A stretch of 32,000 nucleotides of DNA from Sulfobacillus acidophilus DSM 10332 (GCA_000237975.1 CP003179.1:2354270-2386269), one strand, 5' to 3'. Shown: positions 18,090-24,454, counted from the stretch's first letter. Numbers and translations: made by a program. The notes: generated by a model not told the origin, from the sequence alone.

Positions 18090-18172
18090 CTTTTTTATTT
18101 TTAGGTATTGACAGACTAGTGTGATCTCTGAGACATTTAAAATGTAGTAATCCTATACGGTCACTCATCTAT
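18090..18172. promoter_or_regulatory. AT-rich divergent control region between the MFS gene and the sulfur-relay operon
   Basis: The most AT-rich stretch I noticed in the window. It holds a consensus TTGACA at 18108..18113 with no well-spaced -10. TGTGA-N6-AGACA lies at 18120..18135. A perfect inverted repeat ACATTT-a-AAATGT lies at 18133..18145. Confidence 0.4.
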
Positions 18173-19564
18173 GTGGGGGCGTTGGATATCATGGGCCTCG
18201 CCTATTGGATCAACGCCGCACCCCTATCCTTAGTCAGCGGATGGAGTTTTCTCGCCGCATTCAACCAACAGGAAAGACAGCACGGATATCCTTGGTGGAC
18301 ACGATCTGGACGATGGGCAGGCTGGAGTTTGCCTCTCATCGGGCTTTGGTGGATCGTGTGGGGTCTGCGGCACCCGATCCTGCTAACCGGAACAGCCAGG
18401 GCGGACCTCGCCGTTTTGTGGTTCGGCGAATTAAGCCTCGTCGGGTTGCGGAGGCCAGGCCGGTTCTCGGCCCTGTTCGCCGGAATCGTCGGTTTCCTGG
18501 CGCTTTTCGGTTTGAATCATCTGATGGCCCAGGGACTGTTGGCCCATCCCCTTCCCCTCAAGGGGGCTCCGAGCTATCCGATTCACGGATGGCCGACGGC
18601 CCTCTGGTTGACCGGCTGTGAAGCATCTGCCGCCGTCGCCGGCTTGAGTCTGGGAAGCCGGGCGGGGACAGAACAGCAGCTGGTGCGAGGTCTCCTCGCG
18701 CTGACGGGTACTGTCATCACGGGATTTTTCTTTACGAAATCCCTTATGGGCCCTTATTTACCGGCGTGGGCCAATTTAATGGACGGCTCCAGCCGCCACT
18801 GGTGGTATTGGATGGCCGACGGGGTCATGGGCTTATTTTGCTTCACCGGGCTACGGTTTTGGGCCCGGGGCCCCGGCGGTCGCGTCGCCGCCCTCGTCAC
18901 GAGCGCCGTACTCGTCGTCGGGCTGGTTTTGTTGGTCCATTGGGCAACCCGTGCCATGGTACCCGATTTTGCCACCCAAATGGGGCAGGCCGCCCTCCTG
19001 TTTGGCGTCCTCGGCGCCGTTATCGGCATCCTCGGGTCGGCGAATAGCCTTTGGCAAGCCGAACGGTTGCTGTTGGTAGGGGTGTCGGGTCTCTGGAGTA
19101 TCGCCTTAACGGGTGCTTTTCAGTCGTTGGCGATGAAAAACCATTGGGTGCCGCGACCGCCCATATCTCAGGTGCCGGCGACGACGGCGGCCGAGATTCA
19201 AGCCGGTCGGGAATTAGCCCAAAACCTGGGCTGTTATACCTGCCATGGGGTGAACGGCACCCAGGACCGCCCCAATCCGGGGGATCCCGGCCAATGGGTA
19301 TGGGCGTGGAATTCGGCGCCCTTTCACCATGTATTTGGCGGGCCTTCCGGTCGACAAAAACTCTGGACCTTATTGTGGAACGGTCAGTACGCGTACCGGA
19401 TGACATTTTACCCCTATCAACACAACTGGTCCGTCGCGTACGACACCATCGACAACCACTACAACGTCCCCGCGTGGAATGGCATTGTGACCGCTCAACA
19501 AATGCAGTGGCTGGTGAGTTATATCCAAAGTCTATCGGTCTCGCCGACCGGGAAAGGAAGGTAA
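18173..19564 (+). CDS. polytopic membrane protein fused to a C-terminal mono-haem c-type cytochrome domain
   Basis: About 10 hydrophobic helices over about 330 aa, followed by a soluble domain with haem motif CYTCH (19232..19246). The C-terminus is cytochrome-c-like (QQMQWLVSYIQSL). The start may be ATG 18191 instead of GTG 18173. Confidence 0.7.
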   Translation: MGALDIMGLAYWINAAPLSLVSGWSFLAAFNQQERQHGYPWWTRSGRWAGWSLPLIGLWWIVWGLRHPILLTGTARADLAVLWFGELSLVGLRRPGRFSALFAGIVGFLALFGLNHLMAQGLLAHPLPLKGAPSYPIHGWPTALWLTGCEASAAVAGLSLGSRAGTEQQLVRGLLALTGTVITGFFFTKSLMGPYLPAWANLMDGSSRHWWYWMADGVMGLFCFTGLRFWARGPGGRVAALVTSAVLVVGLVLLVHWATRAMVPDFATQMGQAALLFGVLGAVIGILGSANSLWQAERLLLVGVSGLWSIALTGAFQSLAMKNHWVPRPPISQVPATTAAEIQAGRELAQNLGCYTCHGVNGTQDRPNPGDPGQWVWAWNSAPFHHVFGGPSGRQKLWTLLWNGQYAYRMTFYPYQHNWSVAYDTIDNHYNVPAWNGIVTAQQMQWLVSYIQSLSVSPTGKGR

Positions 19565-19568
19565 CCGC

Positions 19569-19943
19569 GTGGCCCATCTGGTTGTGATGACCACCGACGC
19601 ACCCGAAAAGTGGGCGGATGCCGGCGAATTCGTCGTCCACTTCATCCTCGCCGCCCTTGCCGAAGGACATCGCGTCGACCTCTTGAGTGCCGGCGACGCG
19701 GTCCAAAGCCTCAGGCTTTCATCGCCGTGGTCCGATTTGGCCGTCGGTCGGCCAGACGGATTATTCCGCTGGCATGCCTGCGGGCATGCGTGTCATACCT
19801 CCGGTATCGCCGCCCCGGATTTGCCGCCGACCGCCGTGCTATCCAGCACCACCCAATTCGGTCAGCTCATGCGACAGGCCGACTGTACCGTCATTTTGGA
19901 ACCGGGGAGGATGGCGTCATGGACAACCGCATCGGGGTCGTGA
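19569..19943 (+). CDS. dsrE: DsrE/TusD-like sulfur-relay protein
   Basis: GTG 19569 lies 7 nt after GGAAAGGAAGG and 4 nt after the preceding stop. The DsrE-family N-terminus is HLVVMTTDAPEKW...ALAEGHRVDLL. A candidate active-site region is WHACGHACHTSGI. Confidence 0.65.
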   Translation: MAHLVVMTTDAPEKWADAGEFVVHFILAALAEGHRVDLLSAGDAVQSLRLSSPWSDLAVGRPDGLFRWHACGHACHTSGIAAPDLPPTAVLSSTTQFGQLMRQADCTVILEPGRMASWTTASGS

Positions 19944-20224
19944 TTCAACGCCCGCCGGACGATCGGCTGGCCGAACTCCTGCGCATCACCTTGGGCCTTT
20001 ATACCGCGGACGTGTTGGCCGGCGTCGTGGTTTGGGGACACGGTTGCGCAGTGTTTCAAGACGACCAAAACCCGGCGGCCCGGCAAATCTGCCGCTATTT
20101 GGAGGAACTGGTCGAGTGCGACGTGCCCGTGTATCAGACCGAAGGCTCCGGCCCGCTCGCGTCGATCAGCCCCCGAAAGGCCGCCGAGTGGCTGAAAGAC
20201 ATCCGCTGGGTCATTGTCCATTAA
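19919..20224 (+). CDS. dsrF: DsrF/TusC-like sulfur-relay protein
   Basis: ATG 19919 follows GGGGAGGA and overlaps the dsrE-like gene by 25 nt. The translation MDNRIGVVIQRPPDDRLAELLRITLGLYTADV..VVVWGHGCAVF fits the DsrE/F fold pattern. The upstream part of track ORF 19610..20224 is a GC artefact. Confidence 0.6.
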   Translation: MDNRIGVVIQRPPDDRLAELLRITLGLYTADVLAGVVVWGHGCAVFQDDQNPAARQICRYLEELVECDVPVYQTEGSGPLASISPRKAAEWLKDIRWVIVH

Positions 20225-20256
20225 ATGTCCCTAAAGGTAAAGGAGGCAGAGTTCAT

Positions 20257-20541
20257 ATGACCACGATTTTGGCTAGCCAGTGGGAGTCGCTGTTACCGGT
20301 GTTGGAACAGATCGTGGCCACCGAATCACATCACTCGGTCAACGTCATCTTGTATGGCGCCGCCTTATCCGCACCTGACCAGGCGTTGGCGGATTGGTCG
20401 CCGGACGGACTCTCGTCCGTGACCTTTTATTGCCCGCCGACGGGGTCGACATCCCGGCCCGATTTCGCGGTGACGGCGAGTTACCCAGAATTGGTGGCCT
20501 TGACCGTCAGCGCCGATCGCGTGATTTCCGTAACCGCTTAA
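20257..20541 (+). CDS. dsrH: DsrH/TusB-like sulfur-relay protein
   Basis: ATG 20257 follows AAAGGAGG. The 94-aa product has a layout like TusB: VNVILYGAAL, VTFYC, and YPELVALTVSADRVISV at the C-terminus. Confidence 0.6.
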   Translation: MTTILASQWESLLPVLEQIVATESHHSVNVILYGAALSAPDQALADWSPDGLSSVTFYCPPTGSTSRPDFAVTASYPELVALTVSADRVISVTA

Positions 20542-20571
20542 ATTCGAGAGAAAAGATTGGAGGGATGTTTC

Positions 20572-20835
20572 ATGCATGACGCTTCAACCCCTGTTCAAAA
20601 CTTGGCCCCTGACGAAGTGTTTGACGTCCGGGGCGAAACCTGCCCGTTTCCGGCGATGTATAGCCAACGGAAATTAAAAAAACTGCCGGCCGGCCGCGTC
20701 ATCGAAATACTCATTGACCATCCGCCCGCGGCGGAAGAAACCGTACCCGGCATCTGCGCCGAGAAAAACTGGCCCTACCATTCCGTCAAAGAAGACGGGT
20801 ATTGGCGGATTAAAGTGTTTAAAACCCATCCGTAA
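20572..20835 (+). CDS. tusA: TusA-family sulfurtransferase
   Basis: ATG 20572 lies 7 nt after GGAGGG. The diagnostic motif DVRGETCPFP (CPxP with the active Cys) is present. The size of about 87 aa fits the family. Confidence 0.85.
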   Translation: MHDASTPVQNLAPDEVFDVRGETCPFPAMYSQRKLKKLPAGRVIEILIDHPPAAEETVPGICAEKNWPYHSVKEDGYWRIKVFKTHP

Positions 20836-20853
20836 TCGAGAGGAGCACACTCC

Positions 20854-22113
20854 ATGACGATATTGGCCAATTTGCCGGCCATCACGCCCGGCTGGGTGTT
20901 GATCGGACTTTTCGTCCTGTTAGGTATTGGCTTTGGCATAATCCTGGAGCGAAGCCGCTTTTGCTTCACCACGGCTTTTCAAGAAACCATGGAATTTCGT
21001 AATCCGTGGATTTTACAAGCCGTCTTTCTCTGGATGGGCTTGTCGGCTTTGGTCGTTTCGGGCCTGACCGAATGGGGCGGCGTCCAGCCGCAATTGTTTA
21101 ATCAAGGGTGGTACACCGTGTTCGGCGGCTTTTTGTTCGGGACCGGCATGAGCATGTGTGGGGCGTGTGCCTCGGGTCAACTCTTCCGAGCCGGCTCCGG
21201 CTACGTCGCCAACTGGATGGAATTCATCGGAGCCGGATTCGGCGGCATCTTGTTCGCCCTCTGGTTCTACCCGGCCGTAGAACAGCGCGCGCTCGCGCAT
21301 TCGCAACCGCTGTCGTTACCGGCGACCCTCCACGTGCCGCCCATCGTCTGGGGGCTGGGCAGTGCCGTGTTATTTTTGGGTCTGGCGTGGCGCCTTCACC
21401 GGCGGGTTCCCCAACGGCGATCGGCCTCTTATCAGGAAAAAACCTTTCGCTTGTCGCTTCGGCATCCCTGGAATCCCTTAGCCGGCGCGATTTTGTTAAC
21501 CGTGTTATCCACCCTCTACCTCGTCCTTTCCTCCGGCACGTCCATGAGCATCAATACCCCCAACACGTTGACGATTGCCTGGTTAGTCAATTGGGTGACC
21601 AAACCGTTAGGGTACAATTTGGCCACGCACGGTTTTTTCGTGGAAGCCGACTATCACCATCACATTTATTCCCGGCTCTCCCCGCTGGCGCTAAACCAGA
21701 TATATGAACCGCATTTTGGCCATCATTTGGGCGATCTCGCCCTCGGCGTCTGGCTTTTCATCCCGCTTACGATTGTGGGGGCCTTCTTATCGTCCCGCAT
21801 CGCCGGGGAATTTAAATGGCGGATCCCCCAAAAGCGCAGCAAACTGCTCTGGTATTTAATTGGCGGGGTCATTATGGGCTTTGGCGCAGCCACCGCGCTG
21901 GGCTGCAATATCGGCGCCTGGACCGAAAGTTTCGCTGCCCGCTTTGACTTGTCCGGGCTCCTCTTCACCGTCGGCATGTTTCCCGGCGTCTGGTTCGGCA
22001 CCCGGCTGGATGAATGGGTGGCGGATCGGTTGTGGGGATTTGACCAACCGACCCCGGTCCTCCGTCCCCGACCCCGAGAAGCGATGCCCGCCCAAGCGGT
22101 CGAAGACCGTTAA
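20854..22113 (+). CDS. yeeE: YeeE/YedE-family sulfur-compound (thiosulfate-type) transporter
   Basis: Polytopic protein with the three family Cys-containing segments (ERSRFCFTTAF, MSMCGACASGQLF, ALGCNIGAW). It lies directly downstream of tusA, as in known YeeE/YeeD-type pairs. Confidence 0.8.
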   Translation: MTILANLPAITPGWVLIGLFVLLGIGFGIILERSRFCFTTAFQETMEFRNPWILQAVFLWMGLSALVVSGLTEWGGVQPQLFNQGWYTVFGGFLFGTGMSMCGACASGQLFRAGSGYVANWMEFIGAGFGGILFALWFYPAVEQRALAHSQPLSLPATLHVPPIVWGLGSAVLFLGLAWRLHRRVPQRRSASYQEKTFRLSLRHPWNPLAGAILLTVLSTLYLVLSSGTSMSINTPNTLTIAWLVNWVTKPLGYNLATHGFFVEADYHHHIYSRLSPLALNQIYEPHFGHHLGDLALGVWLFIPLTIVGAFLSSRIAGEFKWRIPQKRSKLLWYLIGGVIMGFGAATALGCNIGAWTESFAARFDLSGLLFTVGMFPGVWFGTRLDEWVADRLWGFDQPTPVLRPRPREAMPAQAVEDR

Positions 22114-22141
22114 GCATTCCACCCCAAGAGGAGGGTTTCCC

Positions 22142-22324
22142 ATGTCTGAGCTATGGACCGAACACCGGTCAGCACTCTGGTCCCTGTTTGTAGCCATCTT
22201 GTTATTGGCCGTTTTCATGGCCAAACCGCCGGTCAACGCCAGTACCGCCCCCACGACCCATCCGGCCCACAGCACGCCCGGTAAGGCAAGCACTCCCACC
22301 ATGGGTGTCGGCTGTGGCGGATAG
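22142..22324 (+). CDS. 60-aa membrane-anchored peptide with a Pro/Thr/Ser-rich linker and C-terminal GVGCGG
   Basis: ATG 22142 lies 6 nt after GAGGAGGG. One TM helix (ALWSLFVAILLLAVFMA) is present. The single Cys is third from the C-terminus. The ORF is embedded in a longer artefactual track ORF (21860..22324). Confidence 0.5.
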   Translation: MSELWTEHRSALWSLFVAILLLAVFMAKPPVNASTAPTTHPAHSTPGKASTPTMGVGCGG

Positions 22325-22350
22325 ATCTTTTAGAGAGGACGATTAATCGC

Positions 22351-23517
22351 ATGCGAGTTCCTGTACGGCTATCGGCCGTCGCCACCATCTTAGCCAGCCT
22401 GGCGGCCGGATGTGGCCAAACAACCACTCCGACAGCCACGACCGAACCGGCCGTGCATCCGGCACCGCCGTCCGACGGCTATGTCTTTGTCATGAACACC
22501 GGTTCGGACACGATTTCCGTGATCGACCCGAAAACCAATACGGTCATCAAAACCCTCAATGCCCAGGGCATGACCCTGTCCCCGTACCCGTCGGACCAAT
22601 ATGCCCCCGGATCGGGTTATGTTCTCTCGGGCTGGAAAAATACCTTATCCATTTTGAAGGTATCCGGCACGTCGGTTTCTCTGGTGAAAAACATCCCCTT
22701 ACCGACGAGTGTAACCACCAAAAACGGGACGCCGGTTCCCCAAACGGGCGTGTGGGGTGACATCACGCCGAGTGGCACCGGGGTTGTCGCGGTGCGCGAA
22801 GCCGAGAAATATCTCTTTTTGAACATGAATCCCCACAGCAAGACCTTTGGCCAAGTCGAATATTCCATTGATACGGCCCAGTTAGGTCCCCACGGGACCG
22901 GCATCGGGCCCTGAGACGTCTCCTTCTCCCCCGGTGGGGGACTTTGCTTTGTACCCTGTATCTACAGCAATCAGATTCAAGTGTTAAATGTGGCAAAACA
23001 CGAGGTGGTTTCGACGATCGCCAGCGCCGTGCCCAAACCGACCATGGATACCGTGTCGTGGAACGGTAAATATCTCATTGTGGAGGATACGGCCAATCTG
23101 GCCAATCAAGTCACCATCTATTCCTTGACCAACCCGGAAACGCCGGTCGCGCTAGCTACTTTGACGGCGGGCGTCGCTCCCAACACCGATCAAGTGGCTC
23201 CCAACAACCAATATACGTTTGAAATCTCGTCGGGTAACCCGAAAGCGCACATCAACGGGTCCGTCGAAGTCATTCAATTGTCGGACCATCCCTCCGTCAT
23301 CAAAACGATTGCCTTACCCGGATCCGGCGATACCGTGGGCACCTTTTCTCCGAACGGCCAGTACCTTTATGTCAATGTCCCCTCAATCAACAAGGTGGCG
23401 GTCATCTCGGTGTCGTCACAAAAGTTGGTCGACATGATATCCGTGGGCCAAGACCCGGGCGGACTCTTTACCAGTCATTACGATTGGGTTACGCGGCCAC
23501 CCGCCACGTCGAGTTAG
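22351..23517 (+). CDS. YVTN-type beta-propeller lipoprotein, one gene interrupted by an in-frame TGA at 22912..22914 (Sec/recoding candidate or pseudogene)
   Basis: Lipobox LAAGC and YVTN-like repeats (YVFVMNTGSDTISVIDPKTNTVIKTL; VGTFSPNGQYLYVNVPSINKVAVISV). Track ORFs 22351..22914 and 22981..23517 are in the same frame. The 66 nt between them encode a repeat-consistent DVSFSPGGGLCFVPCIYSNQIQVLNV. There is no SD before 22981. Confidence 0.7.
22912..22941 (+). other. in-frame UGA plus downstream GC hairpin (candidate SECIS-like/recoding element)
   Basis: UGA is followed 12 nt later by the hairpin UCCCCC-GGU-GGGGGA (22927..22941). The loop GGU occupies nt 22-24 counted from the U of UGA. Confidence 0.35.
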
Positions 23518-23528
23518 GGGGTGACGTC

Positions 23529-23615
23529 ATGACCCCTTTGATCGATGTAGCTCTCGGTGTCCTCGGTGCCGGATTGGTCATTTGGCAACTGCTCCTGAAA
23601 GACGTATTAAAATAG
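23529..23615 (+). CDS. 28-aa hydrophobic peptide (MTPLIDVALGVLGAGLVIWQLLLKDVLK)
   Basis: ATG 23529 lies 5 nt after GGGGGTG and 11 nt after the propeller stop. The stop is 3 nt before the terminator hairpin. Not in the ORF track because it is too short. Confidence 0.35.
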   Translation: MTPLIDVALGVLGAGLVIWQLLLKDVLK

Positions 23616-23618
23616 GCG

Positions 23619-23652
23619 AAAGGCCAGGTCTTCTTCGAGAAGGCCTGGCCTT
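23619..23652. terminator. bidirectional terminator hairpin between the sulfur operon and codY
   Basis: AAGGCCAGGTCTTC-TTCGA-GAAGGCCTGGCCTT forms a stem of about 14 bp. It sits between convergent genes ending at 23615 (+) and 23672 (-). Confidence 0.7.
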
Positions 23653-23671
23653 AACCTCTTCCCGGATCGGG

Positions 23672-24454
23672 TTACCGTTGCAACTTCTTGAGTTCCCCTA
23701 ACAACCGGTCGTTTAAGACCCGAATGTGGGTGCCTTTCATCCCGAGCGAACGGGACTCGATCACGCCGGCCGACTCAAATTTGCGTAGCGCGTTCACAAT
23801 CACCGACCGGGTAATGCCTACGCGATCCGCGACCTTGGACGCGACCAGGAGTCCTTCCGGTCCGCCAAGCTCTTCGAAAATGTGCTGAACCGCTTCCAGT
23901 TCCGAATAGGATAGGGTGTCGATAGCCACTTTCACGGCCGCTTTCTTCCGTGCTTCCATTTCCAGCTCATCGGATTTCGAGCGCAGGATCTCCATCGCCA
24001 CGACGGTCGCACCATACTCGGCCAAAATCAGGTCTTCATCGGTAAACTCCCGCCCAAACCGGGAAATGACCAATGTTCCCAAGCGATCGCCACCGCCGTT
24101 GACCGGCACGATGGTCGTCAATTTGTTTTCATAAAGACAAGGCTTATCATGGAAGAAGACACACTGCCGGGCTTGCTGCGACACATTCGGCAATGTCTCA
24201 TCCACCTTAAGAAGCCCTTGGTTATAGTTGGCGGGAAATACTTCCGGTTCAAGGACTTCACGCACCATGATGTTGCATTCGAATGAGTCCAGCAAAGAGT
24301 ACCCTAAAATCTTTCCACGCCGACTAACCACATACACGTTGGCCTGAATCAGTTCCCCTAAAATCTTGGCCATTTCCTCAAAGTTGACCGGATGACCGGC
24401 CGACCGCTGTAATAGGCGGTTAATCCGGCGCGTCTTGTCCAGCAACTGTTCCAC
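23672..24454 (-). CDS. codY: GTP/BCAA-sensing global transcriptional regulator CodY
   Basis: 260 aa with [16 protein letters not shown], a GAF-like N-domain and a C-terminal wHTH ([38 protein letters not shown]). GTG start lies 7 nt after GAGGAGGA. Position after hslU fits the conserved synteny. Confidence 0.95.

Follow-up and report, generated by a model that had tools for sequence, protein, structure and literature searches.

In the genome of the heat-loving Bacillota bacterium Sulfobacillus acidophilus DSM 10332, we analysed a stretch of 32,000 nt (GenBank CP003179.1:2354270-2386269; hereafter, the window, from the first letter of which positions are counted), in which nine open reading frames (ORFs), all on the plus strand, lie between 18173 and 23615. 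They specify, in order, a membrane protein with a C-terminal monohaem cytochrome c domain (18173-19564), the DsrE (TusD-like; 19569-19943), DsrF (TusC-like; 19919-20224) and DsrH (TusB-like; 20257-20541) subunits of a DsrEFH complex of type II, a TusA/YeeD-type sulfurtransferase (20572-20835), a sulfur transporter of the YeeE/TsuA family (Sulf_transp; 20854-22113), a peptide of 59 amino acids (aa) with an N-terminal transmembrane (TM) helix and the C-terminus GVGCGG (22145-22324), a YVTN β-propeller lipoprotein that is probably a selenoprotein (22351-23517) and a 28-aa peptide with a single TM segment (23529-23615). These genes form a real, conserved and transcribed unit, which is a new version, found in Bacillota, of the YTD/DsrEFH type II module: the core of that module is already known, while its elaborations in Bacillota are new.

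A preliminary description of the window, made from the sequence alone, had placed nine co-directional ORFs here, and our analysis agrees. The successive junctions measure 4, -25 (that is, an overlap), 32, 30, 18, 31, 26 and 11 nt. Those figures are as first described for all junctions save one: the gap between the YeeE gene and the peptide gene is 31 nt and not 28 nt, because there is no start codon at 22142.

A Conserved Sulfur-Transfer Core

The three DsrEFH-like proteins are divergent. On its own, the window DsrE matched PF02635 with an E-value of 0.0017, and neither DsrF nor DsrH had a Pfam match. Profiles made from alignments with the orthologues of relatives matched PF02635 for DsrE and DsrF (8e-9) and PF04077 for DsrH (7e-13), by which the trio that had been proposed is confirmed. 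The three adjacent genes for DsrE-, DsrF- and DsrH-fold proteins stand in synteny with tusA and yeeE, a gene context that fits DsrEFH type II as judged from sequence. Cys71 is invariant in the DsrE alignment and occurs where the active cysteine is expected, which makes it a candidate counterpart of Cys67 of the Electronema aureum protein.

The distance of the window DsrE, DsrF and DsrH from their orthologues is roughly double that among the orthologues themselves, and the three have lost an (E/A)RGL motif that is conserved in all three subunits elsewhere, the DsrE cysteine being kept. No such acceleration is seen in TusA, YeeE or the cytochrome protein. This pattern could mean relaxed selection on the trio, or a changed partner, in the lineage of S. 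acidophilus.

TusA (PF01206, 2.9e-14) carries the motif ETCPFP, in which Cys24 of the CPxP signature is invariant, and a second conserved cysteine, Cys62. YeeE covers the PF04143 profile in full (7.8e-50). Aligned to the Spirochaeta transporter StYeeE (8J4C/6LEO), its C37 in the first TM helix corresponds to StYeeE C22 and its C105 to the C91-equivalent; both cysteines are conserved in the relatives. The assignment of the two proteins as TusA and YeeE is thus upheld by the CPxP motif and the conserved StYeeE cysteines.

The best NCBIfam matches of YeeE and TusA are the selenium-metabolism models for YedE/FdhT and YedF (TIGR03527), although below the cutoff. On that ground YeeE might be a YedE/FdhT-like selenium transporter, and TusA and DsrE a split YedF-like carrier, which would provide selenium for selenoproteins, including the propeller lipoprotein discussed below. 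YedE and YedF likewise combine a transporter with TusA/DsrE-domain proteins in organisms that use selenocysteine (Sec), as S. acidophilus does, and they co-occur with SelD across bacteria (PMC5322559). However, the scores fall far short of the curated cutoffs (115 versus 350 for YeeE; 34 versus 79 for TusA); YedF is a fusion of TusA and DsrE domains and does not come as a DsrEFH trio with a cytochrome, whereas TusA and DsrEFH are encoded by separate genes in the block, without any fusion; and the gene set as a whole matches the sulfur-related YTD module. We consider a role in selenium supply improbable.

The order cytochrome–DsrEFH–TusA–YeeE is kept in G017, a genome from another genus of the same family, and in G026, from another family of the same order, as well as in two metagenome-assembled genomes (MAGs) of Bacillota, L034 and L035. 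With homologues of the cytochrome protein, we found three more assemblies (L059 and L060/L061, with some reordering, and L062), which brings the genomes or assemblies with both the core and the cytochrome to seven or more. The peptide and the propeller are found again in the group of G017 and in L059. In every neighbourhood read (eight records), the cytochrome fusion adjoins dsrEFH/tusA. Gene-order conservation, by which the preliminary description had proposed to judge the unit, is therefore evident, and given this recurring core order the arrangement is beyond chance. The cluster-bearing relatives are hot-spring MAGs of Bacillota, and contigs like those of G017 carry spore genes (SASP, GPR). 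In the three relatives found through the cytochrome (L059, L060/L061 and L062), a rhodanese gene stands beside the cytochrome–DsrEFH cluster; the window has none. A DrsE_2 protein and a helix-turn-helix regulator are encoded nearby in L060, again without a counterpart in the window.

The Membrane Cytochrome Fusion

The first protein of the block consists of an N-terminal part of some 320 residues, with about 10 membrane-spanning helices, and a Cytochrom_C domain (PF00034, residues 343-455) with the haem-binding motif CxxCH at 354-358. Fusions of this kind are rare: about five full-length clusters exist among 1.84 billion representative proteins. Pfam, NCBIfam, the ESM Atlas and a phylum-wide genome search yielded no homologue of the membrane domain outside this fusion family, and a first scan of the genome contigs with the cytochrome protein found nothing. 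The AlphaFold2 (AF2) model, helical at low confidence (mean pLDDT 45), is too poor for a fold search; an ESM Atlas look-up with the membrane domain gave generic membrane folds only (TraX-like, TM-score about 0.5).

The preliminary description had seen an electron outlet in this protein. As a hypothesis, such a role is plausible. A persulfide relay between cysteines releases no electrons by itself, and an electron-transferring step is therefore to be sought at the membrane or outside the cell.

Extracellular Components: A Cysteine-Tailed Peptide and a Probable Selenoprotein

The 59-aa peptide has no Pfam match. Peptides with the same GVGCGG tail, 59–68 aa in size, occur in five records (the window, G017, L053, L060 and L062). 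The L060 version has the lipobox ...LAACGG of a lipoprotein, which places its cysteine tail outside the cell. The tail is like the C-terminal GGCGG of SoxY, the established sulfur-carrying arm of that protein (PMC6067878), a likeness of motif and perhaps of function.

The propeller gene, which matches YNCE/YVTN models and whose product has the lipobox LAAGC, had been taken for a single ORF. Under the standard code it is not: an in-frame TGA at 22912-22914, overlooked in the preliminary description, divides it after codon 187 into ORFs of 187 and 178 aa. We propose that this UGA, at codon 188, is a selenocysteine codon. The genome encodes SelA and SelB (both above cutoffs) and a tRNA-Sec with the anticodon TCA. 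The UGA has the same codon position in all four records compared, which represent three lineages or more: the window, G017 with its Logan assemblies, L053 and L059. The last of these is a distinct lineage, the cytochrome of which is only 36% identical. A sequencing error was considered and rejected because of this conservation. Moreover, a distant propeller homologue (G427 C1:3528415-3529107; L032) has Cys in the column of the presumed Sec, GPCDV as compared to GP-U-DV. No YTD context accompanies that homologue within the 3.7 kb read, and our propeller search gave matches in close relatives only.

GAC directly follows the UGA in all four records; some 16–30 nt past this codon there is a GC-rich hairpin whose conserved core reads CCCCGG(U/G)GGGG (in the window, at 22927-22941). 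The nucleotide core is kept although the residues it encodes differ (SPGGG versus GPRGG); the sequences are too similar to give more than weak covariation support. An Rfam search with cmscan matched no model of a selenocysteine insertion sequence (SECIS) in this hairpin, nor did it do so for the gene used as the positive control, selD, and the Rfam searches are therefore uninformative either way. The hairpin is a candidate SECIS only. In a consensus scan, the same hairpin also scored as a weak terminator-like element, the T-tail of which is not kept in the relatives. The control gene, selD (locus L024, around 1531), itself carries a Sec UGA, in the context SKSG-U-GCK.

The protein sequence downstream of the UGA is conserved too, and AF2 makes one continuous seven- or eight-bladed propeller of both halves (pLDDT 82, pTM 0.81). 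Among the structural neighbours that Foldseek returned for it are thiocyanate dehydrogenase, cd1 nitrite reductase and the YVTN propeller of an archaeal S-layer. From the sequence comparison and the model, the protein is very probably a lipid-anchored, extracellular selenoprotein with Sec188. We found no relevant literature on a Sec-containing YVTN propeller.

The UGA could instead be a true stop codon between two genes, for a lipoprotein half of 187 aa and a cytoplasmic half of 178 aa. Indeed, in G017, L053 and L059 a start codon occurs two codons past the UGA, where gene callers divide the gene. In the window, however, no start codon exists at that place and the next one is 22 codons on, although the protein sequence of this 22-codon stretch is conserved, and the single propeller modelled from both halves has a strand inside the stretch that would be skipped. 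Lacking a signal peptide, the second half would have no way to join the lipoprotein half on the outside. Together with the Sec machinery in the genome and the cysteine homologue in the same column, this leaves separate genes with little likelihood. For annotators, the locus holds a warning, as standard gene callers split the UGA-containing propeller gene in two.

The 28-aa TM peptide, predicted from sequence, has a homologue in G017 (L033:6477-6563), downstream of the Sec propeller, and L053 is arranged alike. A further YVTN propeller lipoprotein, which lacks Sec, is encoded in G017 (L033:5331-6464), again with a like arrangement in L053. Elsewhere in the S. acidophilus genome, one of seven molybdopterin oxidoreductase genes has an in-frame TGA (C1:982570-983841; L056) and likely specifies a Sec-containing formate dehydrogenase.

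Transcription and Flanks of the Block

The organism's own RNA-seq run contains the whole stretch at 100% identity. Logan RNA contigs span 18159-23800 in three overlapping contigs, one of which has its start 14 nt upstream of the first gene. The block is transcribed, and the contig cover agrees with a single transcript without proving one. One RNA contig is continuous from the propeller gene into the codY region. The organism is also present in one hot-spring metagenome.

Upstream, the AT-rich region that had been described before the unit is there (18090-18172, plus strand) and, with an RNA contig starting inside it at 18159, is likely to hold the promoter of the unit, although no sigma-70 consensus was found in it. 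Downstream, a 15-bp palindromic hairpin lies at 23620-23650, within 23619-23653 (-28 kcal/mol, z = -4.7), between the last gene of the block and the convergent codY (23672-24454). It had been called a bidirectional terminator of roughly 14 bp; the hairpin is indeed strong, but it is not fully bidirectional, as a U-tail exists on the minus strand only, and it is therefore chiefly the codY terminator. The CodY–HslUV–XerC neighbourhood is typical of Bacillota. We considered and rejected a recent island, because the base composition of the block is normal and its codY–hslUV–xerC surroundings are conserved.

Sulfur Enzymes Missing from the Genome

The preliminary description had regarded the block as a self-contained sulfur route, a claim that the genome does not support. 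We found neither DsrC nor dissimilatory DsrAB in it, and AprA stayed below the cutoff; with none of these to receive the sulfur, the route is not self-contained. The sole strong NIR_SIR protein is a CysI-like one of 572 aa, encoded on the second contig (C2:27810-28949). Sox proteins are absent from the genome as searched, with SoxZ and SoxB searched for in the window; hdr-like genes and lbpA are absent from the window, the genome not having been searched for them. Molybdopterin oxidoreductases are numerous in the genome.

This inventory bears on two other functions. In the first, the block would serve assimilation, that is, the uptake of thiosulfate or sulfane sulfur for biosynthesis as by YeeE/YeeD of Escherichia coli, which releases sulfide from thiosulfate (PMC11073785). 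DsrEFH would then buffer or distribute cytoplasmic persulfide, and the outside components would reduce or capture oxidised sulfur with electrons drawn from the membrane via the cytochrome. The YeeE/TusA pair does have the conserved cysteines of that thiosulfate-uptake system, and a genome that lacks the dissimilatory Dsr/Apr pathway and encodes a CysI-like sulfite reductase would suit such a role. Yet assimilatory YeeE/YeeD systems include no cytochrome, DsrEFH or extracellular Sec protein, and in other phyla the YTD module is tied to dissimilatory sulfur metabolism (PMC13293266, PMC12998232). An assimilatory function is thus unlikely, though not far-fetched.

In the second, the block would be a YTD candidate cluster at work in the disproportionation of elemental sulfur. 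In work on Desulfobacterota and Nitrospirota, the YTD cluster figures as a possible marker for sulfur oxidation or disproportionation (PMC12998232). Its genes are overexpressed during disproportionation in Desulfobacterota (PMC12998232), and some Bacillota disproportionate sulfur. However, the S. acidophilus genome is without the DsrAB/AprA/Sat-type enzymes of the oxidative branch, and the link between YTD and disproportionation is itself contested (PMC13293266); we hold this function to be a poor candidate.

Relation to Known Sulfur Systems

In cable bacteria, the DsrEFH type II, TusA and YeeE genes are expressed as an operon, and with the components from Electronema aureum sulfur was transferred in vitro from TusA to Cys67 of DsrE and then to DsrC (PMC13293266). 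The S. acidophilus block has the same core (a YeeE-family transporter, TusA, DsrE, DsrF and DsrH), encoded by adjacent, co-directional genes that are likely co-transcribed, and the import-then-relay logic read from it in the preliminary description is the published logic of this module (PMC13293266). In contrast to the YTD cluster, the block adds the cytochrome c fusion, the Cys-Gly-Gly peptide, the probably Sec-containing YVTN propeller lipoprotein and the small TM peptide, it occurs in Bacillota, and the genome lacks DsrC and DsrAB, which are typical though not strictly defining partners of YTD. With the YeeE–YeeD (TsuA–TsuB) pairs of E. coli and Spirochaeta thermophila (PMC11073785; 8J4C), it has in common the transporter cysteines and a CPxP partner of the TusA family, but here DsrEFH, a cytochrome and extracellular carriers extend the pair into a larger module.

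The likeness to Sox (SoxYZ/SoxAX) is functional only. A C-terminal, glycine-flanked cysteine carrier (GGCGG in SoxY, GVGCGG in the block) stands beside a c-type cytochrome in both systems; however, the peptide of the block is anchored by a TM helix or a lipid and has no Ig-like SoxY domain, its cytochrome is fused to a polytopic membrane domain, and SoxZ, SoxB and SoxCD are wanting.

Proposed Function

We propose that the block encodes an extracellular-to-cytoplasmic sulfur-transfer system with an outside Sec/Cys redox step and a cytochrome, a reading to which we assign a probability of roughly 0.45. Sulfur, such as sulfane sulfur derived from thiosulfate or sulfide, would be handled outside the cell first. 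There, the tethered Cys-Gly-Gly peptide would serve as the carrier, like the sulfur-carrying arm of SoxY, and the lipid-anchored Sec propeller would offer a reactive selenium nucleophile for S–S/S–Se chemistry. The cytochrome c domain, likewise placed outside, would exchange electrons with the membrane through the polytopic N-terminal domain, in the way SoxAX works with SoxY, and these three components (peptide, propeller and cytochrome c domain) would run the extracellular redox step. The YeeE-family transporter would then import the sulfur, TusA would take it up on its CPxP cysteine, and it would be passed between TusA and the active DsrE cysteine of DsrEFH. The oxidative direction seems the most likely one: electrons from sulfide or thiosulfate would go to cytochrome c and on to the membrane, and the sulfur would enter the cytoplasm as a persulfide, bound for a putative cytoplasmic sink.

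Several observations weigh against this proposal. Our searches of the genome found none of DsrC, DsrAB, AprA and Sox, and the oxidative fate that sulfur has in cable bacteria cannot operate here. For the membrane domain of the cytochrome protein, no known family was matched and the AF2 model is of low quality; a link to quinones is conjecture. SoxY is a much larger protein than the GVGCGG peptide, which also lacks a SoxZ partner, and the likeness is one of motif only. Finally, the divergence of DsrE, DsrF and DsrH and the loss of their motif could mean that the trio has reduced function in this lineage.

A wider form of the proposed system would make the block a Gram-positive counterpart of Sox, unrelated to it in sequence: selenium-assisted extracellular sulfur oxidation without Sox or Dsr oxidative enzymes, in which the Sec propeller and the Cys-Gly-Gly peptide would act outside, the cytochrome would deliver electrons to the membrane, and sulfur would proceed via YeeE to TusA/DsrEFH. 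We offer this extension tentatively and regard it as rather doubtful.

The YTD/DsrEFH type II module was linked to sulfur transfer only in 2026 and was thought to belong mainly to Desulfobacterota and Nitrospirota. The extracellular components of its Bacillota version suggest how sulfur gets to the importer. For tracing sulfur and electrons, the cytochrome fusion and the GVGCGG peptide offer handles. The extracellular Sec propeller lipoprotein, if true, would define a novel family of selenoproteins, one that belongs to a sulfur pathway.

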